A DNA stretch of 41,941 nucleotides from a virus. The position numbers and the translations under genes were made by a program. The DNA is taken from the UHGV virus genome UHGV-1354005. One strand, written 5' to 3'. Each line of letters starts with the position of its first letter. Within the stretch, counting starts at the first letter, position 1. The notes under the pieces are model-generated. The model did no database searches and had not been told where the DNA came from. It saw only the letters and a program-made list of their open reading frames with translations. Positions 11,231 through 24,621 of the stretch are shown one piece after another.

Positions 11231-11233
11231 TTT

Positions 11234-11809
11234 TTAAAAAATAATACGGCTATTGTTGTTTTTGTTGTTGATTTCGGAATAAGCTTCCCACAATTCTTCC
11301 ACATGTTGCCTTGAATCATGGAGTTTTAAAAAAAGTTCTTGTGATAAATTCACGAGTATTCCTTTTTTATTAAGATTTATTGCACAATGTCGATAGTATT
11401 TTAGTGCTAAATTCTTATTTGACGTAAAACAACGTGTGTGTGGATAGTCGGATTTTAGGCTAGATCTTCTGTATTCCGGGAAATGCCCTAAAACTTGCTT
11501 TGTTTTGTAATCATACCAGTTTACAGGTTTCACTCCGACAAACAGAAATCCAACAGCAGATCCGCCTCCAGTTTTACGCATAATGGGTAGATAGCCGATT
11601 GTGTTTCCTTTTATTGTGTTAGGTGTTATATATTTTTTTACGATTTCGCCTGTTTTAGTATTTTCTAGAACTAGAAAATATTTAATACTGATTGATTTTT
11701 TTAAATATTCAATAATCTTTTCGTTGTTTTCACATTCTAACATTGTAGATACAAGAGGCGTTCTGTTTCTACAAGTCAAGTATAGTTTGATTATATATGT
11801 TGTATTCAT
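11234..11809 (-). CDS. hypothetical protein (island)
   Basis: 191 aa, AT-rich codon usage, in the same operon. Confidence 0.4.
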   Translation of the reverse strand: MNTTYIIKLYLTCRNRTPLVSTMLECENNEKIIEYLKKSISIKYFLVLENTKTGEIVKKYITPNTIKGNTIGYLPIMRKTGGGSAVGFLFVGVKPVNWYDYKTKQVLGHFPEYRRSSLKSDYPHTRCFTSNKNLALKYYRHCAINLNKKGILVNLSQELFLKLHDSRQHVEELWEAYSEINNKNNNSRIIF

Positions 11810-12242
11810 TTTTTTGTTTTTCTTTTTCTTCTCCTGTTTCTAGGAAAATTTTTAAATCAAGTTCCCTGTTGTTTTTTAACAAACTAAATTTTTGTTTGTT
11901 ATCAACATAATCAATACTTAATGCGAAAGCGTCATTTTTATGATAAACTTCTTTCTTTAATTCTGGAAAGGTGTAAATTGCGAGTTCGTTTTTTATTGTT
12001 TTTGCTAATGATCCGTAAATTAACAACCCTTTAAATTTAACTCCTACAAAATCATTGATGAAAACAAAGCGATTTCCTACCCTAAAAAAAATCAAAGAAT
12101 CTTTTTTTTGGCATTGTAGTCGGAGTGCGTTTTGGATGAATCCAAGATTTCTTCTTTCCTTTTTAGGAACTAGGTATAAAAAGTTTTTCCCTTTTATCAC
12201 CTTTGATACTTTAGATAAAAAACAATCAATATTTTCTTTCAT
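11769..12242 (-). CDS. gamma-glutamyl cyclotransferase (GGCT/AIG2)-like candidate
   Basis: FKGLLIYGSLAK resembles the hhhYGSL/YGTL signature of the GGCT/AIG2/ChaC fold. The motif is not N-terminal, so this call is weak. Confidence 0.3.
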   Translation of the reverse strand: MKENIDCFLSKVSKVIKGKNFLYLVPKKERRNLGFIQNALRLQCQKKDSLIFFRVGNRFVFINDFVGVKFKGLLIYGSLAKTIKNELAIYTFPELKKEVYHKNDAFALSIDYVDNKQKFSLLKNNRELDLKIFLETGEEKEKQKNEYNIYNQTILDL

Positions 12243-12525
12243 TTAGTTCTAACGTTTTAAAGTTAAACCTATATTCTCGATTTTCCTTTAGTGGACATTT
12301 CCGAAAATCGCTAATCAAATCGCCTTCCGGACGTCTTTCTATTCTGAAAATCAATCTCCTAGGGTGTTTGTTGGCGATAAAGACTTCTATGATTGAGCCT
12401 ATTCTCCAATCATCTTTTATCGCCGAAAAAAAACACCGAAGACCGTGATTGAAATTTAGATAGGAGGTAGGGAAGATCCGCCTTTCTTCTTGTGGGTTTT
12501 CAAATTCAAATTGATACACTTTCAT
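12226..12525 (-). CDS. hypothetical protein (island)
   Basis: 99 aa, overlaps neighbouring genes. Confidence 0.35.
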   Translation of the reverse strand: MKVYQFEFENPQEERRIFPTSYLNFNHGLRCFFSAIKDDWRIGSIIEVFIANKHPRRLIFRIERRPEGDLISDFRKCPLKENREYRFNFKTLELNERKY

Positions 12526-12528
12526 TTT

Positions 12529-12858
12529 CTAACGGGAAGAATAATTGATAAGCACTTCTTGCGGCAAAATAACTTTAGATTGAAATGATATTCCAATAAT
12601 CGGCAATATTGTTTTTTCCTCTTTATCAACTCTAAAATTTTTTTTGTTCAGGCGACAAATATATGAAAACTCTTCCAATCCCGCATCGATCAACACGCAT
12701 TTAAGCATTTCTCTTTCAAAAAAGCCACACATTGGCTTTTTTAGCTCATAAATAATTTCATCTTCGATTGTTTCTCTTAGTTTTCTTTTTATATTTATTG
12801 TTGTTTTTTGACTCAAAAAACAACTTAAACATCCATATACATCTTTAATTATTTTCAT
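12529..12858 (-). CDS. hypothetical protein (island)
   Basis: 109 aa, tightly packed with its neighbours. Confidence 0.35.
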   Translation of the reverse strand: MKIIKDVYGCLSCFLSQKTTINIKRKLRETIEDEIIYELKKPMCGFFEREMLKCVLIDAGLEEFSYICRLNKKNFRVDKEEKTILPIIGISFQSKVILPQEVLINYSSR

Positions 12859-13172
12859 TTTATGAATATTTCTTTTTCAGTATTTTTATAAAATTTTGAT
12901 CTTCTTATTTGTTCGGCATAACTATTTCTCATTGAAATAATATCAGATACCGGAAGTTTCATTATTTTTAATTCTTCAATATGTCGAATTTCATTAAATA
13001 TGAATATATTAAAAATTTCTTTTTTGAGCGCCTCTTTTTCAGAATTTTTAAAAATTCCTATAAAAAAAACTTTTTTGTTTTTCAGGGAAACAATGAGAAA
13101 AAAATCATCCATTCCGACACGTTCGTAACACTCTAGCAAATATTCAGTTTTCATGAGACATAGTGTAATCAA
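12855..13172 (-). CDS. hypothetical protein (island)
   Basis: 105 aa, with a 4-nt start/stop overlap downstream. Confidence 0.35.
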   Translation of the reverse strand: MITLCLMKTEYLLECYERVGMDDFFLIVSLKNKKVFFIGIFKNSEKEALKKEIFNIFIFNEIRHIEELKIMKLPVSDIISMRNSYAEQIRRSKFYKNTEKEIFIK

Positions 13173-13521
13173 TAAATTTGAATAATTTTTTGGGAGTTAG
13201 ATAGTTAAGAGGCAATCTACTTAAACAACATTTGTCTTTTCTTCTGCATATAATATCAAGCTCTTCCTGCATTCTTCTTGTTTGGATCTGCACCCATTCT
13301 TTACTTATTCTTTTTTTGTCAAAACATTCACAAGGTGCAAATCCATAATCCATTAGGAAAAAGGTGTGATAATTTTTGACAAAGTAACCTTTCAGATAAA
13401 ACGGCCATAGTTTATTTTTTTTGTTTGCGAAAAAATCGCCCTTAGATTTGGAGAAAAATACGTTTGGAAATATGTAAAAATATTCCGACTCATCATTCAT
13501 GAAAATATAAGGTGTTTTCAT
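13144..13521 (-). CDS. hypothetical protein (island)
   Basis: 125 aa, rich in aromatic residues. Confidence 0.35.
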   Translation of the reverse strand: MKTPYIFMNDESEYFYIFPNVFFSKSKGDFFANKKNKLWPFYLKGYFVKNYHTFFLMDYGFAPCECFDKKRISKEWVQIQTRRMQEELDIICRRKDKCCLSRLPLNYLTPKKLFKFIDYTMSHEN

Positions 13522-13808
13522 CTATTTAACCCCTCTTTTCTCATCTTGTTGACAAGCGAAGAAATCTCTTCCCCTCCTGCAATCACTGAAATTTGCCTCC
13601 CTGTTGCCACAATAGCGCCCCTATTTTCGCCGTCTTCATAAATAAGACTAAACGACATCACTTGTCTTTTACCCACGATTGTTGATAGATAATTCCCGTA
13701 CTCTTCAATAACTTCTTTTTCCGTGTTTAGATTTTTCAAACATCCTAACACAACAACCCTATATTTCGCTTCCATGTTTTTTATTCTTTCATAGCTACTA
13801 TTCATCAA
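13518..13808 (-). CDS. hypothetical protein (island)
   Basis: 96 aa, with a 4-nt overlap. Confidence 0.35.
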   Translation of the reverse strand: MMNSSYERIKNMEAKYRVVVLGCLKNLNTEKEVIEEYGNYLSTIVGKRQVMSFSLIYEDGENRGAIVATGRQISVIAGGEEISSLVNKMRKEGLNR

Positions 13809-14064
13809 AAACTGCGAAACAGTAAAAATAACAAGTTGCCCTTTCTAGCATTTTTGCCTCTTCATCACTGCATCCTGTTTGTGCGTAATCGTTCAAATTG
13901 CCTAGCATGCGTTTCCTTACGTTTTTCAATGTGGGATTCTTAAAATATTCACCGTCATCAAGGTCATCCACCATTTCAAGTGCGTATTTTCTTATCTCTT
14001 TATTTGCTCCCTTTAGTCTTTCATAGAGCAATGCTTGCCTTGTTTTCTCTCTATTGTATCTCAT
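13798..14064 (-). CDS. hypothetical protein (island)
   Basis: 88 aa. Confidence 0.35.
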   Translation of the reverse strand: MRYNREKTRQALLYERLKGANKEIRKYALEMVDDLDDGEYFKNPTLKNVRKRMLGNLNDYAQTGCSDEEAKMLERATCYFYCFAVFDE

Positions 14065-14431
14065 TGTTTTTTTTGTTAAATATAAGTTTTCCTTTAATGC
14101 TAAAAGCCGTTGTATAGTCTCCTCTTTCCGTTTCCTCCAATTCTAGCCCAGCTCCTGCAAAAACTTCCCTTATTATCTCCCTTACCTTCTCTTTCTTTTC
14201 TTCCGATTCTCTATTCGAGTTTCCGAAAAAAAACAACTCTAACGTGTTAGCGTATTCCGTAATTGCGCCGTCTTCTACAAACTCCATAAAGATTTCTTCA
14301 AACCCTCCCACTCTTTCGTTTATCTCTCTTATTGCCTTTCGCTTCAACGGAAATACGTCTAACAACGGATATCTTTCTTCTATCTGCTCTTGTGTTCCTT
14401 TCATGTCTTTACTATATCTTTTTTCTCTCAT
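14051..14431 (-). CDS. hypothetical acidic protein; first gene of the leftward island operon
   Basis: 126 aa and Glu-rich. It is transcribed away from the 1.1-kb control region. Confidence 0.4.
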   Translation of the reverse strand: MREKRYSKDMKGTQEQIEERYPLLDVFPLKRKAIREINERVGGFEEIFMEFVEDGAITEYANTLELFFFGNSNRESEEKKEKVREIIREVFAGAGLELEETERGDYTTAFSIKGKLIFNKKNNEIQ

Positions 14432-14439
14432 TTGTCAAT

Positions 14440-15550
14440 AGCTTTTTATTATTTTTTTTCTCTCATCAACTTCTTTTTTTCTCCTATTCCCCCTCTCTTC
14501 CTTCATACCTTTTTGTCAACCTTTTTCTTCACTTCCTCCTGTCATAACTTTCCGGGGGGGGCTTTAGGGGGGGGGACGTTCCCTCTTCCTCCGTGTTTCT
14601 TCTCCCTCTTTCTCGTTGCGGGGGGTTGTAGGGGTAACGGCTAATCACGTCGAACGGGACTAACCAGCTTGCCCTCCCTCCTCCTAAATCCTCCTCCCTC
14701 CTAGCTGGCAAATGAGTTCATCATTGGATTTTTCGAAAAAAAGGCCATTTCCTGACATTTTGGAGTAAGGCGTTGATAAAGTGTGCGCTTAGGCAAGGCG
14801 AAAAATCTACATGCGAAATGTTGACAAATTTTCAATTTTGTGCATATCCGATTGCCGCGTTGTCAAGCTTGCCTCTAAAAAAGCGGGCAAGGGCGGCTAG
14901 CCTCAAGCATCAAGTTGCGGTTAGTGATCCGCTTGACAAGGGCGATTTTTGCACCGTTATCGGTAAAACGCAACAGTTTTTTTAGTGGAGCGTGCGCTTC
15001 TTGTGTGCAATCTTCGTAACTCATTGATACTCTATCATACTTCGCATAACACACATAATGCAAAGTCGGAAGCCATAGAGGTCAACCTTGAATAACGCAC
15101 TACAAGCCACCTAGCACGCGCCGCCTTTCCCGGATGATATGTGTATCGGCTCACCTCTCAAAAGGCCCGTACAAGCCAACCTCGCAAGCCGTTTTTCGGC
15201 ACAACCGTAAGAATTAGAATAATTATTGCAGTTTTGCCTAGTTTCTCGCATGTTTCGCCGCACGCACGCAGACCAGCATGAGGCAAGGACGACGGCCATG
15301 AGAGGGCGCAACTACCCCTAGGCGCTTGGTGTGTTGCCATGCCATACAGGGGGCGCCGGGGAAAAAGTCGCGGGTGTTTTGCGCTGGACAAAGAAGGTAT
15401 CACGCTGTGTAATAGGAAAAAAAAGAAAAAGAGATAGGAAAAAAGTAAAACGGCCTATAGGGAGAAAACGTGGTTTGTTAGAGAAAAAGAAAAAGGAGTA
15501 AAAAAAAGGTAAAAGGAAAAAATAGTATGTATAAGGAGAAAAAGAAGTTG
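14440..15550. promoter_or_regulatory. divergent control region (early-left and late-right promoters; possible origin or ncRNA)
   Basis: About 1.1 kb with no convincing ORF. It holds a CT-rich tract, G8/G9/G6/G4 runs and inverted repeats gttgtcaagcttg and gcttgacaag. It also includes ttgacaaattttcaattttgtg. Composition switches polarity across this region. Confidence 0.5.
14554..14575 (+). other. G-quadruplex-forming motif (G8-ctttag-G9)
   Basis: The sequence reads ggggggggctttaggggggggg, so four or more GGG tracts with short loops are available. G6 and G4 runs lie at 14620-14634. Confidence 0.5.
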
Positions 15551-15551
15551 A

Positions 15552-16064
15552 TTGGAGAGAAGAAGAGGGAAGAGGAAGAAAGAAAGAATAAATAAGAAAG
15601 AAAGAAGGAGAAGGGAGAAGAAGAGAGAAATGACAGGGAAAGAGCAGATGGAAGAGTTGTGTAAGGAGTTGAGAGAGGAGCTTAGGAGTGGAGTGATAAG
15701 GGGATTGGGAGAGGGGTTGGCGAGGCGAGGGATGAGTCAGGCGATATTCAAGCGGATGGGAGGGCCGGAGGTATGGGCGAGGGTGAGCAAAGGAGGAGTG
15801 AGGAGGGAAGGAGGAGAGGGGAAAAAGGAGGAAGAGGGAGAGTTGAAGAAGGGAGAGCTGTGTGAGTTTTTAAGCAGGGTGATAAGAGGGCGGGAGCTAG
15901 GGATGAGTGGGAAGGAGAAGATGAGTGCGGTGGGGTTGTACATGAGGTTGAAGGGGTGGGACAAGGTGAAGGAGAAGGAGGAAGAGATGGTAGGGGAAGA
16001 GTTGGTAGAGCTGTTAGGAGGGAGTAAAGGAGGAGGAGAGAAGAATGATACGGAGGAGGGTTGA
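15552..16064 (+). CDS. low-complexity E/K/R/G-rich ORF (possibly a highly charged protein, possibly a compositional artefact)
   Basis: 170-aa ORF in near C-free purine-rich DNA. Its amino-acid content is that dictated by GA-rich codons. Confidence 0.25.
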   Translation: MERRRGKRKKERINKKERRRREKKREMTGKEQMEELCKELREELRSGVIRGLGEGLARRGMSQAIFKRMGGPEVWARVSKGGVRREGGEGKKEEEGELKKGELCEFLSRVIRGRELGMSGKEKMSAVGLYMRLKGWDKVKEKEEEMVGEELVELLGGSKGGGEKNDTEEG

Positions 16065-16099
16065 CAGAGGGTATAAGGATGAAATAAAGTAAAGGCGGA

Positions 16100-16807
16100 A
16101 TGAGAAAGAACAGCGAAGGCGAGATAAGAGTGAGGTGTGCGGAGGCGGAGCGAGGATTTCTGGCAGGGGTGAAGGAGATGGTGAAGATGAGGGCAGAGAT
16201 GGGAGTGATGCCGTGGGGGAAGCATGTATTTTATCCAAGGATGTTGCACAAGGCGAGGCCGCAGAAGGTGAGTGATTTTTTAGTAGAAGATGAGAGGTGG
16301 TATTTGAGTGTGAGGGAGGTGGATATGGAGAAATGGGGGGAGAAGCATCATTTATACCGGAGTGCTAGTGGGAAGTATTATTTGGGGTTATTGTTTAAGA
16401 GTACAAAGGCGAGGAGTGTGAGGAGGAAGATAAGCCTTGGGACGCTAGACGAGGAGGTGGCGAAAGAGCGGAGGGAGTTGTTTTATGAGGAGTGGGAAGG
16501 GAAGCATCTGACATGGGCGCAATGTGAGGGAGCGAAGTGGAACATGAAGGTGTCTGGGTGTGCGGTGATAGGGAGCAAGAGTGCGTTGGAGAGGAAGGCG
16601 AGGGAAATGCAGGAGAAGGCGAACCGGGAACAGGCGAAGGCAATATGCAAGGAGTTGGCATTAAAGCGAAAGGCGCAGGTAAAACTGGAAGGATTTAAAA
16701 AGAAGACGGAAGAGATAAAGAGGCGGAGGGTGTTGATGGTAGGAGGGGTAGAGAAAATAGGAGACGCCGTAGTAAGGAGGACGAAGAGAAAAGGAGTGGA
16801 AAGGTGA
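16100..16807 (+). CDS. hypothetical protein
   Basis: 235 aa with more diverse composition (W, Y, H, C, F) despite the purine-rich DNA. Confidence 0.4.
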   Translation: MRKNSEGEIRVRCAEAERGFLAGVKEMVKMRAEMGVMPWGKHVFYPRMLHKARPQKVSDFLVEDERWYLSVREVDMEKWGEKHHLYRSASGKYYLGLLFKSTKARSVRRKISLGTLDEEVAKERRELFYEEWEGKHLTWAQCEGAKWNMKVSGCAVIGSKSALERKAREMQEKANREQAKAICKELALKRKAQVKLEGFKKKTEEIKRRRVLMVGGVEKIGDAVVRRTKRKGVER

Positions 16808-17013
16808 AAGCTATGAAAGAAAAAGAAGTAGGAATAATGGTAAAAGAGAAGAAGGAAGGAGGGTTGGAACTGCATTTGTTTCCGAGCAAGGAGGCAATGG
16901 CAAGGTGGCGAGGTGAGGACAGCGAGCATGACGTGGAGGGGCGATATCAGGAGTGGGTATTGCCAGTAGAGGTATTGGAAGACCTTTGGGCGGCGGCGCA
17001 AGGGGAAGAGTAA
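16804..17013 (+). CDS. hypothetical small acidic protein
   Basis: 69 aa, with a 4-nt overlap to the upstream ORF. Confidence 0.3.
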   Translation: MKAMKEKEVGIMVKEKKEGGLELHLFPSKEAMARWRGEDSEHDVEGRYQEWVLPVEVLEDLWAAAQGEE

Positions 17014-17144
17014 AGTTTTTTTAAACGTCCGGTGCAAGTGGCATCCTCAAATAACAAACAAACAATAGAAGTTGGGTGGAGGCGAGGAGGCGTGGTGCGC
17101 GAACCGCTACGTCCCGGACGGCCTATGCCCAGCAAAGGGAAAGT

Positions 17145-17705
17145 ATGAAAATAATCGTAGATATAGGGCATGCCCGGAAGACAGGGGCGGAAGGGAATGG
17201 GTTGGAAGAGCATGAGGTATCATGCGTAGTAGCGGGCTATCTGGTGGAAGAGTTGGGAAAACTTGGACATGAGGTGCAGGTGTTGGACTTTCCGAGGATG
17301 AGCAATGCGGCAGACTTGAACGAAACGATAAAGGCGGCGAATGCGTCTGGGTACGAGGCAGGAGTATCGTTGCATTGCGACAGCGCAAGTAAAATTGTAG
17401 GAGGCAAGGAGGTATTGAATCCGGAGCCACATGGGGCGCATGTATGCTTTTATCCGAGTAGCGTAAAAGGAGCACGGCTGGCGAGTGCGATAGCAGGTGA
17501 GCTGTGTGTATTGTTGCCGGGGAGGGCAAACAAAGTGCAGGGGCGAGCGAACCTTGCGATATTGAGGAAGACGAAGATGCCGTTTGTATTGTGTGAGTGT
17601 GGATTTATAAGCAACCCGGAGGACGCAGAGGTGATGAGGAGGCGGCCAAAGGAAATAGCGGAAGCAATAGCGAAAGGAGTGGACGCCTATGCGAGAGGAA
17701 AGTGA
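17145..17705 (+). CDS. N-acetylmuramoyl-L-alanine amidase (Amidase_3 family) endolysin
   Basis: From Met 17145: KIIVDIGHARKTGAEG (cf. IxIDAGHGGxDxGA), GVSLHCDS (cf. SIHADA) and FVLCECGFISNPEDAE (cf. EVGFISNPEE). The track start at 17076 is a GTG. Confidence 0.75.
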   Translation: MKIIVDIGHARKTGAEGNGLEEHEVSCVVAGYLVEELGKLGHEVQVLDFPRMSNAADLNETIKAANASGYEAGVSLHCDSASKIVGGKEVLNPEPHGAHVCFYPSSVKGARLASAIAGELCVLLPGRANKVQGRANLAILRKTKMPFVLCECGFISNPEDAEVMRRRPKEIAEAIAKGVDAYARGK

Positions 17706-18099
17706 GGAGGCAATGGACAAAGAGGCAGTAGGAGAGTTTGTTGACAGCATCGTAATGGCCCCCGAAGTGGGAGGTGTTGACGAGAAGGCAGAGGGATTTG
17801 TGTGGGTATTGAGGAGCAAGAACAAGTTTTTGGTAAGGGAGGGGAAGAAGGACAGGAGTGGGCAAAGGTGGAAGCGGAAGCCAGAATACGCTTACATGTA
17901 TTACCGAGGGATGATGGCAGGAGGGGTGCAGAAGGAAGCATCGTGCCTGTTATCGGAGGCGAAAGTGTTTGACCTGCCGTTGCCTAGGAGGAAGTATAAC
18001 ACGGAGGTATGGGACGTTGTGAGGTGCAGGCTAGTTGAGGATGCAGTAGAGGAACCGATATATAGCGAAGCGGAAGCGTTGCTAAAGTTTAACCGTTAG
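17689..18099 (+). CDS. hypothetical protein; positional candidate for terminase small subunit
   Basis: 136 aa, immediately upstream of TerL. No motif recognised. Confidence 0.3.
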   Translation: MREESEEAMDKEAVGEFVDSIVMAPEVGGVDEKAEGFVWVLRSKNKFLVREGKKDRSGQRWKRKPEYAYMYYRGMMAGGVQKEASCLLSEAKVFDLPLPRRKYNTEVWDVVRCRLVEDAVEEPIYSEAEALLKFNR

Positions 18100-18101
18100 T
18101 T

Positions 18102-19682
18102 ATGGAAGTAAGCGAGATAGCCAAGTTGTTGAAAGACCCGATGTGGAGGATATCGCATTTGTATGAGATAAAACTCACGGACGGGAACATCATACCATAC
18201 AAGCCGAGGAAGTTTCAGGAGGAGTTGCACCGGGCGTGTTACTGTGAGGGGAAGCGTCGTTTTTTGATACCAAAGAGTAGGCGTCAGGGGTGTTCTACGG
18301 CGATAGGTGTGATGATGGCAGACATGGCGGCTTTTGAGGAGGGGTGGAAACTGGCGTTGGTGGACAGGACGCTGGGGGACGCAAAGGAAAAGCTGACGGA
18401 CATTGTGAAGGTAGCCTTGGACAGTTTGAAGCGGAAATTGCCGGGGTTGTTTGAGATAAGCTATTTCCAGTCCCGCATCATAGTGAAGATGACAGGGAGG
18501 AGGGCCAGCGAGATAGTTGGCGGTAAATATTTCCGAGGCAGTGGGCTTGGTTTTGCCCACATATCAGAGCTTGGTACCATAGCGACGAGCGAACCGAAGC
18601 GAGCGGCAGAAATAGTAAACGGCACATTCCCGGCGGCCAAGGACGGCTTTATATTCGTGGAGACGACGGTACGAGGCGGGAAGCGAGGGGTATTCTACGA
18701 AAACGTGATGAATGCGTTGAGCGTGCCGGAGGAGGAGCGTGGGGATAAAGATTTCCATGTGGTATTTTTGCCGTGGTGGAGTGACGAGAACAACAAATCG
18801 AAGGGGGGAGAGGCGATAAATGCGGCCACAGAGAGTTATTTTGAGACGCTTAGGAGCAAGAGCGGGATTGTTGTAACCGAGGAGCAAAAGCGTTGGTGGC
18901 AACAGGCCAAGAGGCAACACGGGGTGTCGATGAATGAGGAGTACCCTTCGACCTTGGAAGAGGCTTTTGAGGTTCCGATGGAGGGTGCCATATTGGAGGC
19001 GGTGTTGGACAAGGCAGTACAGGAGGGCGCTTTTCGGAAGTTGGCCTATGACGCGACAAAGCCATGCTATTGCACATGGGACTTGGGCGCGCCGCTAAAC
19101 ACGATTAACCTTGTATTCCAGCTGGACGGCCCCTTCATCAACGTATTGGAGTTGGACAGCGGGTTGCATGCAAGCGAACGTGTGGCAGAGCGTGTAACAA
19201 GGCTCAAAAGCAAATATCCTACATTACAGGCAAACTTCCTTCCGCATGACGGAGGGTACATGACGGACACGGGGATGACACAGGCGCAGATGTGGCAGGA
19301 GGCAGGGTTGCCGGGCATACAGTTGTTACCGAAATCGAAAGACAAATGGATAGGCATCAATTACCTTTTGGGTATGTTTGACCTGTTCCGGTTTGACGTG
19401 GAGGGGACAGGCAGGGCGTATAGCTACTGGTTAAGCTACAGGTGCAAGCCGGAGGTAAGCGAGGGAGGCATATTCAAGAATGAGATTGTGCATGACAATG
19501 CGTCCCATTGGGCAGACCCGTTGAGGTATGTAGCGGAGGCGAAAATGAACAATTTGCTTGTGCAAGGTCCAACAACCCAAGACTATAAGGCAGGAATAAC
19601 ATGTACATTTGGGAAATATCATCGTGAGCGAAACATTGGACATAACTGGCGAGGACGGTTTGAGCGTACTTTCCGAATCTGA
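18102..19682 (+). CDS. terL: terminase large subunit
   Basis: 526 aa. The N-terminal ATPase region has PRKFQEEL and a KSRRQGCST P-loop-like segment. The C-terminal region looks like a nuclease with acidic residues (LPHDGGY, WADPLRY). The portal gene follows, as in the canonical order. Confidence 0.75.
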   Translation: MEVSEIAKLLKDPMWRISHLYEIKLTDGNIIPYKPRKFQEELHRACYCEGKRRFLIPKSRRQGCSTAIGVMMADMAAFEEGWKLALVDRTLGDAKEKLTDIVKVALDSLKRKLPGLFEISYFQSRIIVKMTGRRASEIVGGKYFRGSGLGFAHISELGTIATSEPKRAAEIVNGTFPAAKDGFIFVETTVRGGKRGVFYENVMNALSVPEEERGDKDFHVVFLPWWSDENNKSKGGEAINAATESYFETLRSKSGIVVTEEQKRWWQQAKRQHGVSMNEEYPSTLEEAFEVPMEGAILEAVLDKAVQEGAFRKLAYDATKPCYCTWDLGAPLNTINLVFQLDGPFINVLELDSGLHASERVAERVTRLKSKYPTLQANFLPHDGGYMTDTGMTQAQMWQEAGLPGIQLLPKSKDKWIGINYLLGMFDLFRFDVEGTGRAYSYWLSYRCKPEVSEGGIFKNEIVHDNASHWADPLRYVAEAKMNNLLVQGPTTQDYKAGITCTFGKYHRERNIGHNWRGRFERTFRI

Positions 19683-20067
19683 CAGGGTGTTAAGGAGGGA
19701 CGCAGGGGTGGGATTGAGTGAGGCATGGAAGCTTCACGAGGGAGGCGTGCGCCTCTATACCGGAGGCGGGCTTGTGTTGGGACACTACTACCGCATCGAC
19801 CCGGAGGAGGTTCGTGTGTGGGGCATGGAGTCAGAGTTTCTTCGGACAAGGCATATTTCCGATAGCGCTGTGGACTATGAGGAGGCCAATGGCTTTTTCT
19901 TTTTTTTGGGTATTGGAGACTATGTTGGCTTTTTAAAGCACTTAAAGGCAAGCACACACCTTCAATTTGGTAGTGGACATAGGAGAGGAAAGTTGTATGT
20001 TTACTCACGTAAGGAGTTGGACTTATACATAAAACTTAAACTAAGGAGTAAAAAATGTCAGGAGTAG
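19609..20067 (+). CDS. questionable ORF overlapping the terL 3' end (TTG start; first ATG far downstream)
   Basis: The open frame spans the 370-bp gap between terL and the next gene. Its coding status is uncertain. Confidence 0.2.
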   Translation: MGNIIVSETLDITGEDGLSVLSESDRVLRRDAGVGLSEAWKLHEGGVRLYTGGGLVLGHYYRIDPEEVRVWGMESEFLRTRHISDSAVDYEEANGFFFFLGIGDYVGFLKHLKASTHLQFGSGHRRGKLYVYSRKELDLYIKLKLRSKKCQE

Positions 20068-20351
20068 GAAGTGCAGTAGGAGCAGTAGTAGGAACAATCA
20101 TTGCGCCCGGCGTGGGGACTACAATCGGTGCGGCCTTGGGTGGTGCGGCTGATAGTGTTGCCAGCAAGGGTAAAGGTGAGTCAACCAAGGCACCGGAGGC
20201 CCCCAAACCTGTGAAGACGTATGAGACGCAACAGGAGGCAGTAAGGAGCCAGTCGGAGGCAAACAGGCGCAGGAGTTCTTTCTCAAATACGTTTGTTGCA
20301 TCCAGAGGGATGGGAACAGGCGGCATTGGTAAAAGCTTTTTAGGCCAGTAA
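20055..20351 (+). CDS. small Gly/Ala-rich protein
   Basis: 98 aa with an N-terminal GxGxAxG-rich hydrophobic region. Its stop abuts the portal start. Confidence 0.35.
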   Translation: MSGVGSAVGAVVGTIIAPGVGTTIGAALGGAADSVASKGKGESTKAPEAPKPVKTYETQQEAVRSQSEANRRRSSFSNTFVASRGMGTGGIGKSFLGQ

Positions 20352-20352
20352 T

Positions 20353-21978
20353 ATGTTGTACAACAACCAGAGTCCAAAGCAGAAGAGGGAGCAACTCTAT
20401 TCGTACAGACAGAGATATGTGTCTAACTGGCAACGAGTTGCGGAGTTTGTAGAGCCAGACAGGCGGTTTAACCTGAATGGAGCTGTACAGGAATCCACAC
20501 CTAATAATGAGGGATATATTGACACGACGCTTGAGCGTGCGTTGAGGCTGAACGCAACAGGCCAGCATGAGCTTGTAATGCCCAAGGCTAGTGAGTGGTT
20601 CACCTTTACGCCCTTGGCGAAAGCGGCAGACAGGGAGCTGGTGACAAGCACCATTGACGACGAGTATGCCGAGACTGCAAGGGTTGTGTCCATGTTCATG
20701 AGGAACAGCAACCTGCACACGGCAAGCGAGCTTTTCTTCTGGGACAGGGCGGCTTATGGCATTGGCGCTTTTTGGGCAGAGTGGGACACAAGGAAGCGAG
20801 GCTTTAGCTTTTATTCAATCCCCGTTGGGACATTCATGGTGGACAAAGACAAATTTGGCCGGATGAATATGTTCTGTTGGGACGACTGGATGCGAAACCA
20901 AGACATTGTAGCAACGTTCCCGGAAAAGAATTTGCCTCAAACGGTAAAGGATAAATACATGGCCAACTCCAACAGCCCGGACAACTACCTTGTGTTCCAT
21001 TTGTTGGAGCGAGTGGAGCGCACCGGGGACGAAGGGCTTATTGCCCGTGCGGACGGCAAGGAGTGGGTGCTTCGTTCCGTGTACGACGCAACAGGCGACG
21101 TATTGCTTGAGCAATTCTTCAAGAACTGTCCTGTCATTTGTTGCAACTGTTTTGACTTGCCCAACAGCCCGTATGGGTATGGGTTTGGGAAGGTTTCCTT
21201 GGCAGACCAGATTGAGCTGGTGAATTGCCTGAAAGCGTTGGCAGAGGCGGCCCAGCAGAAGATTTTCCCGCCGATGCTTGTACCCGAAGGCTTCCAAGGG
21301 AACATTGGCTATGGTGCTGGGGAGGTAACAACCTTTAACCCGCTGAACATTCAGGCAAGGCCGTCGCCCCTGTTCCAACAGGCTTCACAAACCTCTGACT
21401 GTCAATGGCAAATTGAGCGGTTCGAGCGTGTCATCAATGAGGCATGTGACGTTAATTTGTTTATGCCGCTGTTGCAGGTGAAGGACCCGCAATACATGAA
21501 GGCCACAGTAGCGCAGATGATTGAGTCTTATTCGGCACGTATCAGCTCTACGGCTTATACGAGGTTGATTGAGCAATTCCTGCAACCCTTGGTGGACTTT
21601 TGCTACAACACGCTGGTGCAACATGGTTATGTCCGTCCTTTGAGGGATTACCATATCCAGTTCTGCACGCCGTTCCAGATTCTTTTGGACAGGCATCAGC
21701 CGACCTTGTTTACGGAGTTCCTGCAAACGGTAGTCATTCCTCTTTCACAAATCGACCCGACCGTTCTGGACTCTGTGAATGCTGACTATATTTTCCGAAG
21801 GAGCATGCTTGATATTGGCCTGTCACCCAAGTACTCTAGGACGGAGGCGAAGGTGGAACAGATGAGGAGAGAACGCCAAGCGGCTCAAGACGAGGCAAAC
21901 CAGATGGCTAATGCCAAGACATTCTCGGAAGTGCAGAAGAATCTTGGAGCGGCCAGCAAAGACATGAATCTGATTTAA
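20353..21978 (+). CDS. portal protein (positional call)
   Basis: 541 aa, directly after terL and before the scaffold and capsid genes. Confidence 0.5.
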   Translation: MLYNNQSPKQKREQLYSYRQRYVSNWQRVAEFVEPDRRFNLNGAVQESTPNNEGYIDTTLERALRLNATGQHELVMPKASEWFTFTPLAKAADRELVTSTIDDEYAETARVVSMFMRNSNLHTASELFFWDRAAYGIGAFWAEWDTRKRGFSFYSIPVGTFMVDKDKFGRMNMFCWDDWMRNQDIVATFPEKNLPQTVKDKYMANSNSPDNYLVFHLLERVERTGDEGLIARADGKEWVLRSVYDATGDVLLEQFFKNCPVICCNCFDLPNSPYGYGFGKVSLADQIELVNCLKALAEAAQQKIFPPMLVPEGFQGNIGYGAGEVTTFNPLNIQARPSPLFQQASQTSDCQWQIERFERVINEACDVNLFMPLLQVKDPQYMKATVAQMIESYSARISSTAYTRLIEQFLQPLVDFCYNTLVQHGYVRPLRDYHIQFCTPFQILLDRHQPTLFTEFLQTVVIPLSQIDPTVLDSVNADYIFRRSMLDIGLSPKYSRTEAKVEQMRRERQAAQDEANQMANAKTFSEVQKNLGAASKDMNLI

Positions 21979-21980
21979 TC

Positions 21981-22253
21981 ATGAAAGCAGACAAAAACAC
22001 GGACGAAGTAGAAATCACCAGCCTTCTTGGGGACACGGTAAGGATTCCCAAGGAGGTGTATGACAAAGCCAAGGAAGTATTGGATTCCGACCCGGACAAA
22101 TACATCCTGTTCGTCCTCAAGGCGATTGCCAGCGGAAGCAGGTACAATCTTCCAGGCGCATTGAAGGCAGGATTCAACGAGAACAAACTCTTCTATATTG
22201 AAGGAATAAACGCACTAATTGAAGTAATCGAAGCATTATATGAGCGAAACTGA
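21981..22253 (+). CDS. hypothetical small protein
   Basis: 90 aa, between the portal and scaffold genes. Confidence 0.35.
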   Translation: MKADKNTDEVEITSLLGDTVRIPKEVYDKAKEVLDSDPDKYILFVLKAIASGSRYNLPGALKAGFNENKLFYIEGINALIEVIEALYERN

Positions 22254-23127
22254 AACCACCCAGCCCGCCGCGCAACAGGCGCAACCTCCGGCTACACAGG
22301 AAACTAAGATGCCGGGAACCATGTCATTGAGCGACCCTTCCTTAACCCAAAAACCTGCCGAGACATTTACTGTTGACAGCATTGTAAACAAAGACGGCAC
22401 GTTTAAGGAAGGGTGGGCCTCTTCTTTTGAGGGAGGCGAGAGCTTGTCCAATAAGTATAACAATATCAATGACTTAATCAAAGGCTTTGTTAATGCCAAC
22501 AAGCTTATTGGTAAAAAGTCGGAACAGGTTACACGCCCCGGAGCCGATGCTACTGACGAGCAGAAGAAGGCATGGCGTGAGCATTTGGGTGTTCCTGAAA
22601 AAGCGGAAGACTACCAAGTCCCTGACGAATACAAAGAGACGGTGGACGCAGAGTCGTTTAAAGAGTTTGCCCAGTTTGCCCATGAGCATAACATCCCTGC
22701 CGACACGATGCAGGAGTTGCTTCGTTTTCAGGAACGGTATGCGGCCAAGCTGAATGAGGCTAATGCCAAGCGAATCGAAGAACAGGCAAAAGAGGCTAAG
22801 AAATACTTCCAAGCGGAGTGGGGAGGCTTGTATGAGCGCAACTTCAACTTGCTCAAGGACGGCCTTGTGAGGGCAGGGATTGACATTGAGTCCCCTGACA
22901 TGGCGGGCGCTCTGAACAATCCCTTCATCCTTTCTGCGTTGTTTGACAAGGTTTCCAGTATGCAGGACGGAACGATGCCCGTCCCCGGCTTCATGAAGGC
23001 TTCTGCGGCTGACGCTAAGGAGCAAATCATGGGGTTGATTAACAAGTATGGCTCGGTAAACCAAATGCCTCATGACGCACGAGAGCTGTACCACAGGCTC
23101 CTTGCGAACAAAAATATCAAATGGTGA
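22240..23127 (+). CDS. scaffolding protein candidate
   Basis: 295 aa, acidic and Q/A/E-rich with predicted coiled coil. It lies between the portal and major capsid genes. Confidence 0.4.
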   Translation: MSETETTQPAAQQAQPPATQETKMPGTMSLSDPSLTQKPAETFTVDSIVNKDGTFKEGWASSFEGGESLSNKYNNINDLIKGFVNANKLIGKKSEQVTRPGADATDEQKKAWREHLGVPEKAEDYQVPDEYKETVDAESFKEFAQFAHEHNIPADTMQELLRFQERYAAKLNEANAKRIEEQAKEAKKYFQAEWGGLYERNFNLLKDGLVRAGIDIESPDMAGALNNPFILSALFDKVSSMQDGTMPVPGFMKASAADAKEQIMGLINKYGSVNQMPHDARELYHRLLANKNIKW

Positions 23128-23231
23128 AGCAAGTTATGCTTGCATGCGCCATGCCGTAAGGGTTTAATAGTCCCTGTGATGGTGTGAGTTTTTTTCTCCG
23201 TATTTTGTCTCACACCAAAAACAAAATGCTA

Positions 23232-23286
23232 ATGCCCGTTGGAGGTTCTTATGTTGTGTTCTTTCCTCCAACGGGCATTTTTTTAT
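23232..23286 (+). terminator. rho-independent terminator
   Basis: atgcccgttggagg pairs with cctccaacgggcat in a 14-bp stem, followed by a T9 run. Confidence 0.55.
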
Positions 23287-23391
23287 TGCAATCTCTCGTC
23301 GTGTGTTGCATACTGCGCTTGCTGTTGTAAAACAGTAGTGTGATTGCATGATTCAATAAGAGCGAAAAGGCGATAACATAGGGATAAATGA

Positions 23392-23424
23392 GGAGGGGGT
23401 ACGTTTGTGCATAGCGTACCCCCT
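23392..23424 (+). other. second hairpin followed by a TAttTTTG -7-like motif (terminator and/or capsid promoter)
   Basis: gagggggtacg pairs with cgtaccccctc. The upstream TTTG and the downstream TATTTTTG are 19 nt apart, the spacing of a Bacteroidetes-type promoter. Confidence 0.4.
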
Positions 23425-23603
23425 CTATTTTTGTTTGCTTTTTCATAAAGTTTATGCATTTGTTTTCTTAAAGGCAACCCGTTTGGACACTTGCTTAATA
23501 CTCATAGTATAAGAGGACAGCCGTCTTCCTCATTAAACAGCCCTACTTTAAGGACACCTGTCGAACCCATTTTGACGGTAAGAATTAAAAGTATAATTAA
23601 ATT

Positions 23604-24596: not shown

Positions 24597-24621
24597 TCAA
24601 ACAAAGGAAGGAGTATAATAT

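Follow-up and report, generated by a model that had tools for sequence, protein, structure and literature searches.

What could remove nearly all cytosine from the sense strand at the start of a phage operon, and why should the loss be graded along it? The question is raised by a stretch of 41,941 nucleotides from an uncultured gut podophage (hereafter the window), in which both main operons begin C-poor and G-rich on the sense strand, with a bias that fades over about 6 kb. A near-absence of C and an excess of purines from about 15420 had been pointed out in an earlier, sequence-only reading, and the effect proved stronger than claimed: the + strand is A39.7 C4.4 G41.8 T14.1 (per cent) at 15400-16100 and A40 C4 G42 T14 at 15406-16100, with a GC skew of 0.84-0.92, and the longest C-free runs in the window measure 164 nt (from 15470), 83 nt (16263) and 69 nt (15789). 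Skew is maximal (0.92) at 15500-15699 in 200-bp windows. Since the baseline outside 12-21.5 kb has a mean of 0.038, an sd of 0.087 and a maximum of 0.25 (500-bp windows), this peak stands some 9-10 sd above that mean, far in excess of ordinary coding bias, as the same reading had held. An assembly artefact was rejected, as independent contigs from IMG/VR, ENA, Logan and NCBI assemblies show the feature as well. No description of a comparable strand asymmetry was found in the searchable literature. The features concerned, with GC skew at third codon positions where it applies, are these:

12500..14431, - strand: genes nearest the promoter of the leftward (early) operon, their coding strand poor in C and rich in purines, with the mirror gradient
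14432..14715, - strand: leader of the leftward operon, a purine-rich RNA interrupted by C8-C10 runs
14716..15313, no strand: non-coding spacer between the divergent operons, of ordinary composition (A26 C24 G25 T25)
15314..15415, + strand: conserved non-coding motif directly upstream of the C-free block
15406..15629, + strand: untranslated purine leader of the rightward (late) operon, nearly C-free
15630..16064, + strand: first late gene, 144 aa, skew 0.90
16100..16807, + strand: second late gene, 235 aa, skew 0.83
16804..17013, + strand: third late gene, 69 aa, skew 0.74
17145..17705, + strand: endolysin, an N-acetylmuramoyl-L-alanine amidase, Amidase_3 (PF01520, E 3.8e-26; phrog_435, E 5e-38), skew 0.58
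17689..18099, + strand: late gene, 136 aa, skew 0.53
18102..19682, + strand: large terminase subunit, terL (phrog_2, phrog_26724), skew 0.35
19609..20067, + strand: conserved small ORF overlapping the end of terL, with homologs after terL in relatives
20055..20351, + strand: small glycine-zipper protein, skew 0.21
20353..21978, + strand: T7-type portal (head-tail connector; PF12236, E 8e-49), skew 0.18

The third-position skew thus falls monotonically along the late genes, the portal being the tail of the gradient and the skew past it about 0. In the block C is exchanged for G and the G+C content is unchanged, in a phage genome that is otherwise a compositional mosaic (G+C 33-50%). On the + strand C and G stand at 9.7 and 41.3% at 16100-17010, 15.3 and 36.6% at 17010-18100, 18.3 and 33.4% at 18100-19700, 22.7 and 27.1% at 19700-25000, and 21.3 and 25.0% (skew about 0.08) at 25000-41941; the whole of 15400-19700 is A30.6 C13.5 G37.2 T18.7, with a skew of 0.47. 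The loss hits synonymous sites, amino-acid-changing sites and the untranslated leader, and the leader, the sole long untranslated part, is the most C-depleted portion. Its C-free runs start at 15406 (45 nt) and 15470, and it holds most of the latter 164-nt run. The 130-nt intergenic stretch at 17014-17144 has an ordinary C content inside the gradient. Four-fold sites of the first late genes hold 0-5% C and 40-62% G, with T itself depleted (4%) in the window clade; arginine codons in the block are AGR over CGN by 31:11 and serine codons AGY over TCN by 19:1, and Pro, His, Gln, Thr and Ala make up 13% of residues in block genes versus 25% elsewhere. The earlier claim of a systematic avoidance of C-containing codons is thereby upheld. 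G runs of at least three are under-represented (z -3 to -6), so that G appears as a dispersed stand-in for C rather than as a structural G-cluster, and no specific motif was enriched in the block. The residual C is depleted after T (odds 0.49-0.65) and enriched after C (1.5), and hence there is no clean YC avoidance. Among 11 close genomes, SNPs at 15405-17100 comprise 10 to C and 11 from C, and rare variants that create C are not in excess; per G site, the block shows 11-fold fewer G-to-C changes than the DNA downstream of it. That the gradient is held at equilibrium is well supported.

The genes involved are in part well known, and the amidase and terminase (four-fold sites of the former: A39 C5 G52 T5) are real genes that keep a strong G-over-C skew, as had been stated beforehand. 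The first late gene (four-fold sites A40 C0 G56 T4) has no Pfam, PHROG or PDB match; its homologs, with 22-38% identity and 10 invariant residues, head the operon in the related phages L017, L022, L020 and L024, and Terminase_2 or Sf6_terminase genes occupy its position in more distant relatives. Judged by position it is possibly the small terminase. The second late gene matched no family in Pfam or PHROGs, and the first three late ORFs are of low complexity and rich in Gly, Glu, Lys and Arg. The small ORF after terL, which probably starts near 19680, has homologs in L017 (11218-11652), L022 (3614-4039) and L028 (11111-11542). In each of the four clades the genes next to the glycine-zipper gene are more skewed than it is.

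The skew sets in within about 100 bp, directly after the conserved motif, and decays exponentially from about 15.35-15.41 kb to zero near 21-22 kb. Its amplitude is near 0.9 and its length constant some 3 kb, and the curve levels off at about 0 (a = 0.91 and lambda = 3.1 kb in the window; a = 0.94 and lambda = 2.6 kb in L017). The ordinary bias previously read from about 19.7 kb onwards does not begin at any boundary there, as the + strand skew amounts to 0.2-0.36 even at 19.5-20.3 kb and does not come down to about 0 before 21.5-22 kb. The divergent minus-strand operon has a mirror gradient of its own, weaker and directed leftwards, where coding-strand C is 10-15% at 12500..14431 and the + strand skew is -0.48 (14001-14500), -0.36 (13501-14000) and -0.27 (12501-13000). 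The opposite polarity noted at 14.44-14.7 kb is present (A13.5 C31 G18 T38 on the + strand at 14440-14720); it is not confined there and continues to about 12.5 kb. The switch of polarity does lie in the divergent control region, as had been proposed. Here a sigma70-like TTGACA-16-TATAGT is found at 14438-14411, the C8-C10 runs of the leftward leader appear as G runs on the + strand at 14548-14625, and this leader does not fold more stably than shuffled sequence. The spacer yielded no Rfam family, no tRNA and no fold that beats shuffles, and the cumulative GC skew minimum falls within it, at 15.1-15.3 kb. The motif at 15314..15415, in the order ACCCCTAGG ... GGGGGCGCCGGGGAAAAAGTCGCGGG ... GCGC ... 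AAGAAGGTA ... GTAATA, lies just upstream of the block, the final C ahead of which is at 15405; it is alignable in the window, L017, L022, L020 and L024, at terL identities down to 48%, and is also visible in L028 (8555-8620). It is probably the late promoter or an activator site, though it may instead be a packaging site. Contig ends of relatives cluster at 14.5-15.8 kb, and their long contigs are permuted.

Comparison with the relatives indicates what the gradient follows. Over 35 genes in four clades, third-position skew declines the farther a gene lies from its operon start (Spearman rho = -0.89, p = 5e-13). Skew in terL is 0.62 in L028 (1.75 kb from the start), 0.63 in L017 (1.96 kb), 0.38 in L022 (2.5 kb) and 0.35 in the window (3.5 kb), and in the portal gene 0.35 (4.0 kb), 0.33 (4.2 kb), 0.17 (4.8 kb) and 0.18 (5.8 kb), respectively. 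The C and G contents per 500 bp of the window and L017 overlay each other despite a difference of 1.5 kb in gene content. That the gradient is set by position and not by the resident gene is thus well supported. The starts of the leftward and rightward gradients are 2.8 kb apart in L017 and 2.1 kb apart in L028, every gradient is unidirectional and follows the transcription of its own operon (C per 500 bp in the leftward block of L017 is 5.8, 9.4, 13.0 and 16.2%), and the minus-strand cassette between them is of ordinary composition (skew -0.10 to +0.17). A 300-nt purine-rich stretch in L028 ends at a hairpin, and we take it to be a separate short transcription unit. The skew of L020 begins within an intergenic region of 635 nt, about 300 nt ahead of the first late gene, and in this sister clade, L020/L024, the bias covers the whole transcribed genome at 0.45-0.55 (four-fold sites A4 C4 G73 T20; G/(A+G) 0.95, C/(C+T) 0.12). 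Relatives at about 35% terL identity show no skew. Distant terL relatives sit in Prosthecobacter genomes, the one hint as to a host. A uniform genome-wide skew in related phages had been named as something that would refute the observation, and L020/L024 do have it; since such a value, 0.45-0.55 along an entire phage, is itself extreme, and the relatives at about 35% have none, we read this clade as extending the phenomenon rather than making it ordinary. Throughout the skewed clades four-fold sites hold 0-6% C and 50-73% G, and the sign of the A/T bias flips, from A40/T4 in the window to A4/T20 in L020. The clades of the window, L022 and L028 lose T along with C (four-fold T 2-16%) and gain A. 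We regard it as well supported that this is a gradient of composition bound to transcription units, in which G replaces sense-strand C from each operon start.

Such an anchoring bears directly on the explanations that have been offered. The proposal that the segment is foreign DNA from a compositionally different source, or reflects the amino-acid composition of odd proteins, draws on the low-complexity first ORFs and the mosaic genome, but it is refuted, and its probability close to negligible, given a smooth gradient through amidase, terL and portal, a bias that is strongest at four-fold sites and in the untranslated leader, and orthologs that shift with distance in four clades whose gene content differs. 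Replication-linked mutation, whether from a bidirectional origin in the 14.7-15.4 kb spacer or as a strand-displacement gradient of the mitochondrial type, would suit the cumulative skew minimum, from which both strands lead away G-rich, and exposure-time gradients are known in mitochondrial genomes. Replication skew, however, is flat along a replichore and here vanishes within 6 kb; the L017 and L028 gradients have starting points separated by 2-3 kb of unskewed DNA and run one way along transcription; skew borders coincide with transcription-unit borders in L020 and L028; the purine pattern of the window clade differs from the expected G+T pattern; and the skew is about 0 in the host DNA around prophage L020. 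The origin-proximal bias suggested at the outset is thus largely refuted and very improbable. Also improbable is that a G-rich non-template strand was selected for R-loops (purine RNA:pyrimidine DNA hybrids) that prime or open replication, as at T4 oriF/oriG or in ColE1 priming, or that keep promoter-proximal DNA open. R-loop formation has a recognised determinant in positive GC skew shortly after a transcription start (PMC3787257), promoter-derived R-loops serve as origins in T4 (PMC3016281), and the scanned ORFs include no recognisable initiator, the recognised ones of possible relevance being a DnaC/IstB-like loader, a PD-(D/E)XK exonuclease and a RuvC-like resolvase. Yet the G clusters that nucleate R-loops are rarer at 15405-17100 than its composition predicts (G3 z -3.1, G4 z -4.4, G5 z -3.8), as they tend to be in L017 and L020 too, there is no enrichment of G-quadruplex motifs, the first 224 nt of the late operon are A-rich with only about 31% G+C, and a 6-kb gradient through essential genes, or a whole L020 genome, far exceeds what an origin needs.

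Evasion of DNA-level defence, a wider form of what the sequence-only reading had suggested, is rather unlikely. A C-free strand would carry no G:C palindromic site and no head-to-head pairs of asymmetric sites, and when exposed would offer no substrate to cytosine-directed deaminases or nucleases; the gradient would then reflect how early or how long a segment is exposed, for instance during T7-like transcription-driven entry before counter-defences act, where 3 kb at about 50 nt/s takes roughly 1 min. The structural module is indeed T7-like, with homologs of internal virion (ejection) proteins, the arbitrary sign of the A/T bias suits asymmetry as such, and 6-bp palindromes at 22-40 kb are at 0.33-0.38 of expectation (z about -10), which indicates strong restriction pressure on this phage. 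Those containing G/C number 1.8 per kb in the first 1.7 kb of the block against a baseline of 4.2, but their density at 17.1-19.7 kb (4.6 per kb) is not below it, the ratio in the L017 block is 0.72-1.1, and L020 combines uniform skew with no avoidance at all (9.5 per kb, ratio 1.04). Avoidance of 6-bp palindromes in this phage is genome-wide, and the block adds little to it beyond composition. Moreover, only one genome end enters first, yet gradients occur in both operons, and the stronger belongs to the presumed late one. Transcription-coupled asymmetric mutation has more in its favour, though we still consider it unlikely: the non-template strand, single-stranded in transcription bubbles and promoter-proximal R-loops, would be damaged while the template is preferentially repaired, eroding sense-strand C, with R-loop length or declining polymerase density giving the exponential decay and G-richness feeding back to favour R-loops. 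This accounts for the anchoring at transcription starts, the one-way direction, the limits at transcription units, the gene independence and the exponential profile; the balanced SNP fluxes and the rarity of G-to-C changes agree with it, and the G+T-rich four-fold pattern of L020/L024 would be expected if an exposed strand were deaminated both C-to-T and A-to-G. Against it, the window, L022 and L028 clades lose both pyrimidines, which requires pyrimidine-to-purine transversions, and we know of no single-strand damage pathway that produces these on the exposed strand; L017 loses C and does not gain T; the A/T bias changes sign between close clades; and DnaB of L020 and L024 (56% identical to each other), on the same strand, between skewed flanks and long resident, is far less skewed than its neighbours. 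Deamination as such was rejected, as it would make T from C, whereas T is not gained and C becomes G.

The reading that survives is a force on the non-template (sense) strand or its RNA copy. The data are best read as selection acting on the sense transcript or the transcribing complex; a by-product of DNA damage such as deamination agrees with them less well, and so do an origin effect and foreign DNA. Tentatively, we propose that what is selected is the removal of Rho-loading (C>G) sites, a best guess at mechanism made with low confidence. Rut sites are C-rich, G-poor 'C>G bubbles' with YC repeats (PMC9160355). Not one 78-nt window with C>G occurs in the first 3.1 kb (the window) or 3.7 kb (L017), and there are essentially none over 12.5 kb in L020/L024, while 27-85% of such windows per kb have C>G in unskewed relatives. 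No RNA or DNA polymerase gene was detected in Pfam and PHROGs scans of most ORFs over 100 aa (several scanned ORFs, including one for a 2064-aa protein, had no match), so that host RNA polymerase probably reads the phage operons of 12 and 26 kb. Promoter-proximal RNA with much G and almost no C would lack every C>G stretch needed for Rho loading, and in the first 1.5 kb nearly all secondary structure would be gone too, including the GC hairpins of intrinsic terminators; the leader has a minimum free energy of -6.9 kcal/mol per 200 nt compared with -50 to -65 downstream. Premature termination near the start would have a polar effect on the entire operon, and it would be likeliest in the 224-nt leader and first cistrons, before close ribosome-polymerase coupling. 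Pressure would thus be strongest at the start and weaker further along, an account of the decay that we also hold with low confidence.

Some observations sit awkwardly with Rho. A pressure scaling with the number of downstream genes predicts a linear fall over 26 kb, and the fall observed is exponential over 6 kb, so that the explanation of the decay is ad hoc. RNA folding energy is at the genome baseline from 17 kb on, where skew is still 0.35-0.5, and hence 'unstructured RNA' cannot explain most of the gradient. The C8-C10 runs in the leftward leader would be ideal Rho-loading sequence, the intergenic stretch at 17014-17144 is not poor in C, YC is not cleanly avoided, and the balanced SNP spectrum fits mutational equilibrium as well as strong selection.

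The closest analog in the literature is provided by the gene transfer agent clusters of alphaproteobacteria, whose GC-skew peaks arise from a preference for G over C in codons and were judged not to stem from deamination; comparable elevation was not seen in phages in that study (PMC9836097). For the phages considered here, Rho or another C-reading factor of RNA surveillance may, at low confidence, be the selective agent, and L020/L024 would then have spread the same solution over their whole transcribed genome.

The window appears, from its gene content and from relatives' contigs of 40.4-41.4 kb, to be the complete genome, about 41 kb long, of a podophage whose genes form two long divergent operons: a leftward (early) operon on the minus strand from about 14.43 to 2.4 kb, and a rightward (late) operon on the plus strand from 15.63 to about 41 kb. 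It encodes an Amidase_3 endolysin, a large terminase (terL) and a structural module of the T7 type that comprises a portal (PF12236), a scaffold or protease-like protein, the major capsid protein, tail tube proteins, a homolog of an internal virion protein (phrog_418, 303 aa) and then proteins of 652 and 2064 aa, neither of which matched a family. The 2064-aa protein (32971-39165, plus strand) sits at the position of a T7 gp16-like internal virion protein and has no PHROG match. Replication and recombination are represented by a PD-(D/E)XK/DUF2800 exonuclease, a RuvC-like resolvase and a DnaC/IstB-like loader. Among the ORFs scanned, several of which matched nothing (the 2064-aa protein is one), neither an RNA polymerase nor a DNA polymerase was detected. 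The G+C content is tri-modal, at about 41% (1-8000), 33% (8000-14440) and 46-50% (15400-41941), with an early region whose AT content greatly exceeds that of the virion module, pointing to a mosaic origin or to differing constraints. Two weak matches close to each other, one to class-II glutamine amidotransferases (GATase_4, E 3e-4) and one to an amidoligase (phrog_2443, E 3e-6), make a pair reminiscent of phage base-hypermodification or peptide-ligase cassettes:

8787-9473 and 9974-11230, minus strand: profile matches to GATase_4 and phrog_2443

At the start of the late operon the plus strand is almost devoid of cytosine. Between 15400 and 16100 it consists of 39.7% A, 4.4% C, 41.8% G and 14.1% T, the GC skew (excess of G over C on the sense strand) reaches 0.92 in 200-bp windows, and one run of 164 nt within the block is free of C, so that the sequence-only reading described this strand correctly. 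Windows of 500 bp over the rest of the genome have a mean skew of 0.038, with a standard deviation of 0.087 and a maximum of 0.25, which places the block about 10 standard deviations above the remainder. The bias takes about 100 bp to set in: the skew climbs from 0.12 (15200-15399) to 0.77 (15400-15599) right after a conserved non-coding motif (ACCCCTAGG ... GGGGGCGCCGGGGAAAAAGTCGCGGG ... GCGC ... AAGAAGGTA ... GTAATA), with the final C, at 15405, directly following that motif, and transcription probably starts there. An untranslated purine leader of 224 nt then precedes the first late gene at 15630. Beyond this the bias fades gradually. The C content is 9.7% at 16.1-17.0 kb, 15.3% at 17.0-18.1 kb, 18.3% at 18.1-19.7 kb and 21-23% farther on, and the skew at third codon positions falls gene by gene through 0.90, 0.83, 0.74, 0.58 (endolysin), 0.53, 0.35 (terL), 0.21 and 0.18 (portal) to 0.06, -0.04 and -0.01. 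The edge that had been placed at 19.7 kb therefore does not exist, the skew reaching zero only at 21.5-22 kb; nor is the opposite polarity confined to 14.44-14.7 kb, where it had been noted, since the minus-strand genes keep it for their first 2 kb. Within the C-poor block there is a 130-nt intergenic stretch of ordinary C content (17014-17144), which includes a G-free CAUCCUCAAAUAACAAACAAACAAUAG tract and is a possible site of internal regulation or processing.

The genes of the block are real and yet systematically avoid codons with C, as had been supposed. Homologs of the first late gene, with ten invariant residues, head the operon in four other clades; only its position suggests a small terminase, no family of that kind having been matched by Pfam, PHROGs or PDB profiles. 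Four-fold degenerate sites in the first late genes are 40% A, 0% C, 56% G and 4% T, against 22% A, 24% C, 21% G and 33% T in the distal late genes, and in the first three late genes codons containing C account for 23% of the total as opposed to 54% distally. Arginine is encoded by AGR and CGN codons in a ratio of 31:11 there versus 125:138 distally, and serine by AGY and TCN codons in a ratio of 19:1 versus 140:302. The pressure against C extends to the protein sequence: the residues P, H, Q, T and A, every codon of which has a C, make up 13% of these three proteins versus 25%, and G, E, K and R together make up 49%, up from 24%. The claim that the asymmetry goes beyond normal coding bias is likewise borne out, as it is strongest in the untranslated leader and at four-fold sites and depends on position in orthologs.

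A nucleotide search of positions 14400-20400 against GenBank phages gave no match, tblastn with terL and portal recovered no cultured relatives but remote ones (terL at most 31% and portal at most 23.5% identical), and a scan of genome contigs with terL confirmed no relative. Relatives were drawn from IMG/VR, Logan, ENA and NCBI assemblies, which contain many. Close relatives (90-100% terL identity) reproduce the profile exactly. More informative are three diverged clades, L022, L028 and L017, whose terL proteins are 70%, 67% and 65% identical to that of the window and in which the number of genes between the conserved motif and terL differs, so that the same gene lies at different distances from the operon start.

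Distance from the late operon start, and GC skew at third codon positions, of two orthologous genes
terL, L028: 1.75 kb, skew 0.62
terL, L017: 1.96 kb, skew 0.63
terL, L022: 2.5 kb, skew 0.38
terL, window: 3.5 kb, skew 0.35
portal, L028: 4.0 kb, skew 0.35
portal, L017: 4.2 kb, skew 0.33
portal, L022: 4.8 kb, skew 0.17
portal, window: 5.8 kb, skew 0.18

Over 35 genes in the four clades, distance and third-position skew are correlated with a Spearman rho of -0.89 (p = 5e-13). In 500-bp bins the C and G percentages of the window and L017 superimpose nearly point for point, with a difference of 0.073 when bins are matched by distance and 0.108 when they are matched by gene, and exponential fits gave an amplitude of 0.91 and a length constant of 3.1 kb for the window and 0.94 and 2.6 kb for L017, both with asymptotes of about 0. 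A foreign origin of the segment, which had also been suggested, does not agree with a gradient that is dependent on position and conserved across clades. A 418-aa early protein and a 419-aa protein of L017 are not homologous and so provide no further test of position. One gene-specific exception to the distance rule is a small glycine-zipper gene just upstream of the portal gene, whose skew lies below that of the adjoining genes in each of the four clades:

window, 20055-20351: glycine-zipper gene
L017, 11633-11917: glycine-zipper gene
L028, 11511-11795: glycine-zipper gene
L022, 4021-4323: glycine-zipper gene

The trait occurs within the lineage in two forms, a ramp and a whole-genome form. 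The latter is seen in a more distant sister clade, L020 and L024 (terL 48-51% identical to the window and 69% to each other), in which a flat skew of 0.4-0.6 extends across more than 12 kb of virion genes and most of the replication genes, and where four-fold sites are 4% A, 4% C, 73% G and 20% T. An old resident of both genomes, the DnaB gene (56% identical between them), is far less skewed than its neighbours on the same strand, in two phages whose divergence is old:

L020, 6890-8739: weakly skewed DnaB gene and the gene preceding it
L024, 341-1687: weakly skewed DnaB gene

Relatives at about 35% terL identity, one of them a Prosthecobacter contig, have no skew, which implies that the trait arose within this lineage. 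Akkermansia or another member of the Verrucomicrobiota is a tentative lead for the host.

The sources of the gradients are transcription units rather than an origin of replication. In the window the cumulative skew has its minimum at 15.1-15.3 kb, and the plus strand is G-rich rightwards and the minus strand G-rich leftwards, a sign switch of the kind expected at an origin with each strand G-rich leading away from it. As the two gradient starts are only 0.7 kb apart there, an origin, a genome end and a pair of promoters are indistinguishable in the window itself. In L017 and L028 the two starts are divided by a minus-strand cassette of ordinary composition (2.8 and 2.1 kb, respectively), every gradient runs one way along its own operon, and the cassette adjoining the late motif is unskewed. 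A replication skew, or the origin-proximal mutational bias put forward earlier, is thus extremely unlikely to be the cause, given two distinct sources that each run one way and are set apart by unskewed DNA. A constant skew per replichore is ruled out by the exponential fall to zero within about 6 kb and by bounds that coincide with transcription units in L020 and L028. In the prophage L020 the bias begins in a 635-nt intergenic region, about 300 nt ahead of the first late gene, and the flanking DNA on the host side has none. In L028 a purine-rich non-coding stretch of 300 nt (6540-6850, plus strand) diverges from the early promoter, and a GC hairpin ends both the stretch and the bias; we take it to be a separate short transcription unit, with the minus-strand cassette lying between it and the late operon, and such an 'orphan' purine leader raises the possibility that the leader RNA does something in its own right.

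The divergent control region of the window holds further features. TTGTCAA/TTGACAA words in both orientations, at 14433, 14513, 14820, 14860 and 14935, look like operator half-sites or overlapping -35 elements. Runs of G8, G9 and G6 on the plus strand at 14548-14625 correspond to C runs in an otherwise purine-rich leftward leader RNA; their role could be to load Rho or to act as an attenuator, or they could be a tract prone to slippage, and they may account for the many contigs of relatives that end at 14.5-15.8 kb. Scans of the window for tRNAs and for Rfam families (at gathering thresholds) gave no hits, and folds of the spacer at 14720-15410 (either strand), the leftward leader and the intergenic stretch at 16990-17150 were no better than those of shuffled sequence.

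The change common to all skewed clades is a swap of C for G at constant G+C content. The A/T bias that goes with it varies: A exceeds T in the window, L022 and L028, T exceeds A in L020 and L024, and L017 shows practically no shift. Deamination of single-stranded DNA (C to T, A to G) is rejected for the window, whose block loses T and gains A; only L020 and L024 have the composition that this process would leave, and L017 loses C without a gain of T. The window clade has lost C and T alike and gained A and G alike, a change that calls for transversions, and this requirement, together with the DnaB exception, makes a regional mutational equilibrium unlikely. Among 11 close genomes the polarised spectrum of SNPs at 15405-17100 comprises 10 changes to C and 11 from C, and G-to-C changes are 11-fold rarer per G site than downstream, results that fit strong selection and equilibrium mutation bias alike. 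The dinucleotide context of residual C (TC depleted, CC enriched) is confounded by codon structure. Asymmetric mutation coupled to transcription is unlikely, having to explain both the transversions of the window clade and the weakly skewed DnaB genes of L020 and L024. Quite probably the feature is a promoter-anchored and position-dependent gradient that runs along transcription, exchanges C for G on the sense strand and is conserved across clades, and for which origin-proximal mutation, deamination or foreign origin does not account.

Several specific targets of selection can be set against this pattern. Predicted RNA folding is weak in the first 0.8 kb (-7 to -13 kcal/mol per 200 nt) and reaches -22 kcal/mol at 16.6 kb, and from 17 kb it is at the genome baseline (-50 to -65) while the skew is still 0.35-0.5, so that unstructured RNA is at most part of the cause and is rejected as the sole one. 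A function of the G-rich non-template strand in forming R-loops would suit a positive skew that starts at the putative transcription start; it is nonetheless very unlikely, as the G clusters that nucleate R-loops and the potential for G-quadruplexes are both depleted. Runs of three, four and five or more G are under-represented in the window block (z of -3.1, -4.4 and -3.8), three-tetrad quadruplex motifs number 1 against 2.3 expected, and in every skewed block G clusters and quadruplexes fall under the expectation from composition (z -3 to -6), which also rejects selection for such clusters in their own right. An array of oriented, Chi-like oligomers was rejected, since only words derived from codons recur (GAAGA, AGGAG, GAAGAG) and no 7-mers are shared across clades; no specific word was enriched or depleted beyond codon effects. 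Avoidance of elemental pause sites (G-10, Y-1, G+1) fails on the arithmetic of composition, the gain of G cancelling the loss of pyrimidines. Evasion of DNA-level defences, ordered by exposure, has in its favour a genome that avoids palindromes strongly. At 22-40 kb 6-bp palindromes occur at 0.33-0.38 of the expectation from composition (z about -10) and 4-bp palindromes at 0.64-0.69; a milder avoidance holds at 2.4-12 kb (z -4.3 to -4.7, with a 6-bp ratio of 0.55-0.69). Restriction pressure on this phage is thus real. The 6-bp ratio is 0.41-0.43 in the window block (z -1.5 to -2.9), 0.72-1.1 in the L017 block and 1.04 in L020. Palindrome avoidance thus does not appear to be what distinguishes the block, which shows no clear extra avoidance, L020 having none at all; the skew adds little to it beyond the first 1.7 kb, and evasion of this kind is unlikely.

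The leading hypothesis, which we hold only tentatively, is that selection keeps Rho, or another factor reading cytosine in single-stranded nucleic acid, from acting on the nascent RNA near the promoter. A rut site is by definition a 'C>G bubble' of about 78 nt, rich in C and poor in G (PMC9160355). The first 78-nt window with C over G appears 3148 nt into the late transcript of the window and 3724 nt into that of L017, and no strong window of this type occurs in the first 5.5 kb of the late transcript. The fraction of such windows per successive kb is 0.00, 0.00, 0.00, 0.09, 0.00 and 0.15, then 0.2-0.6; over 12.5 kb it is 0.00-0.06 in L020 and L024, as opposed to 0.27-0.85 in unskewed relatives. 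For its two operons, 12 and 26 kb long, the phage seemingly relies on host RNA polymerase; exposure would be greatest in the untranslated leader and the earliest cistrons, where termination would also cost most. L020 and L024, with their whole-genome form, would have carried this solution through the entire genome. Counter to the Rho hypothesis are the runs of C8-C10 within the leftward leader, and the explanation that it offers for an exponential decay is ad hoc. In its broadest form, which is possible rather than probable, a podophage lineage with no detected RNA polymerase or recognisable antiterminator would shield its long operons from host transcription surveillance by composition alone. 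The surveillance agent might be Rho or another cytosine-reading RNA or single-strand factor, and the shield would be a near-C-free sense alphabet, which some clades deploy as an exponential ramp anchored at the promoter and others along the entire genome, and which overrides protein sequence.

Strand asymmetry linked to transcription is old as a kind. Szybalski's rule, or 'purine loading', holds that mRNA-synonymous strands are purine-rich, and ordinary coding skew is modest, about uniform per gene or operon and accounted for by codon and amino-acid usage. The sense strand here is likewise rich in purines with G over C, its polarity tracking gene orientation on both sides of the divergent promoter region. 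Unlike that rule, the skew reaches 0.9, amino-acid composition is rewritten, the bias decays exponentially, and in the sister clade G is partnered by T rather than A. The nearest published parallel found is that of alphaproteobacterial gene transfer agent clusters of the RcGTA type, which have GC-skew peaks and G-over-C codons, and for which codon selection was argued and cytosine deamination argued against (PMC9836097). That skew is small (a few hundredths in 10-kb windows, as genome-scale deviations), with no elevation in phages or prophages (PMC9836097). Both cases concern phage-derived structural genes with an excess of G over C in their codons, yet the skew is far stronger here and forms a promoter-anchored gradient, of which PMC9836097 describes none. 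Vertebrate CpG-island promoters and immunoglobulin switch regions form R-loops and are GC-skewed and promoter-proximal (PMC3787257). They share with the present case a positive non-template skew from the transcription start (a putative one here) over about a kilobase or more. They differ in that here G clusters and quadruplex motifs are depleted, the skew is about ten-fold larger and lies in protein-coding DNA, and the comparison is one of sequence only.

In vertebrate mitochondrial genomes a gradient of strand asymmetry arises from time spent single-stranded. As there, G exceeds C at synonymous sites according to position, and L020 and L024 are G+T-rich and A+C-poor; unlike there, the anchors are operon starts, two one-way sources exist, the decay is exponential and not linear, and the window clade is G+A-rich. 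Phages also carry processive antitermination systems at operon starts, such as lambda N/nut and Q/qut and the put RNA of HK022. The analogy would be functional only, in that a cis feature lying just past the early and late promoters, at the positions of nutL/nutR and qut or of putL/putR, would allow host RNA polymerase to transcribe a very long operon; nothing like a nut, qut or put element or factor came to light, and Rfam returned no hit. The protection proposed here would be compositional and kilobases wide, unlike a discrete polymerase-modifying site. T7 has all of its EcoP15I sites in one orientation, and phages avoid palindromes. Strand asymmetry can similarly blunt enzymes that need palindromic or head-to-head sites, and this genome too avoids palindromes; what is altered here is the entire alphabet of one strand and not particular motifs. 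In the literature on GC skew, cytosine depletion, Rho, R-loops and purine loading the pattern is undescribed as far as found, and we found no description in a phage of a skew of about 0.9, of a C-free leader or of an exponential, gene-independent decay from operon starts. The feature is real and reproducible.

The strand asymmetry that replication or transcription leaves behind is usually weak and about uniform, and serves chiefly for guessing where origins lie. In this phage it follows a simple law, an exponential decay from every operon start whichever genes are there, and relatives span the range from none through a gradient to the whole genome. Calls of an 'origin' from cumulative skew would mislead in such phages, low-complexity C-free starts probably break assemblies, with contig ends clustering there, and gene finders and codon-based host predictors would be biased for promoter-proximal genes. 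If the pattern is mutational, it would represent a mutagenic process of a new sort, anchored at promoters and marked by transversions. If it is due to selection, it would be a cheap and general route by which a phage dependent on the host polymerase gets past premature termination or C-directed defence, and position within an operon can then dictate codon and amino-acid usage. Protection by composition alone, if true, would give phages a new counter-strategy encoded in cis, and the evolution of their genes a new constraint that depends on position.
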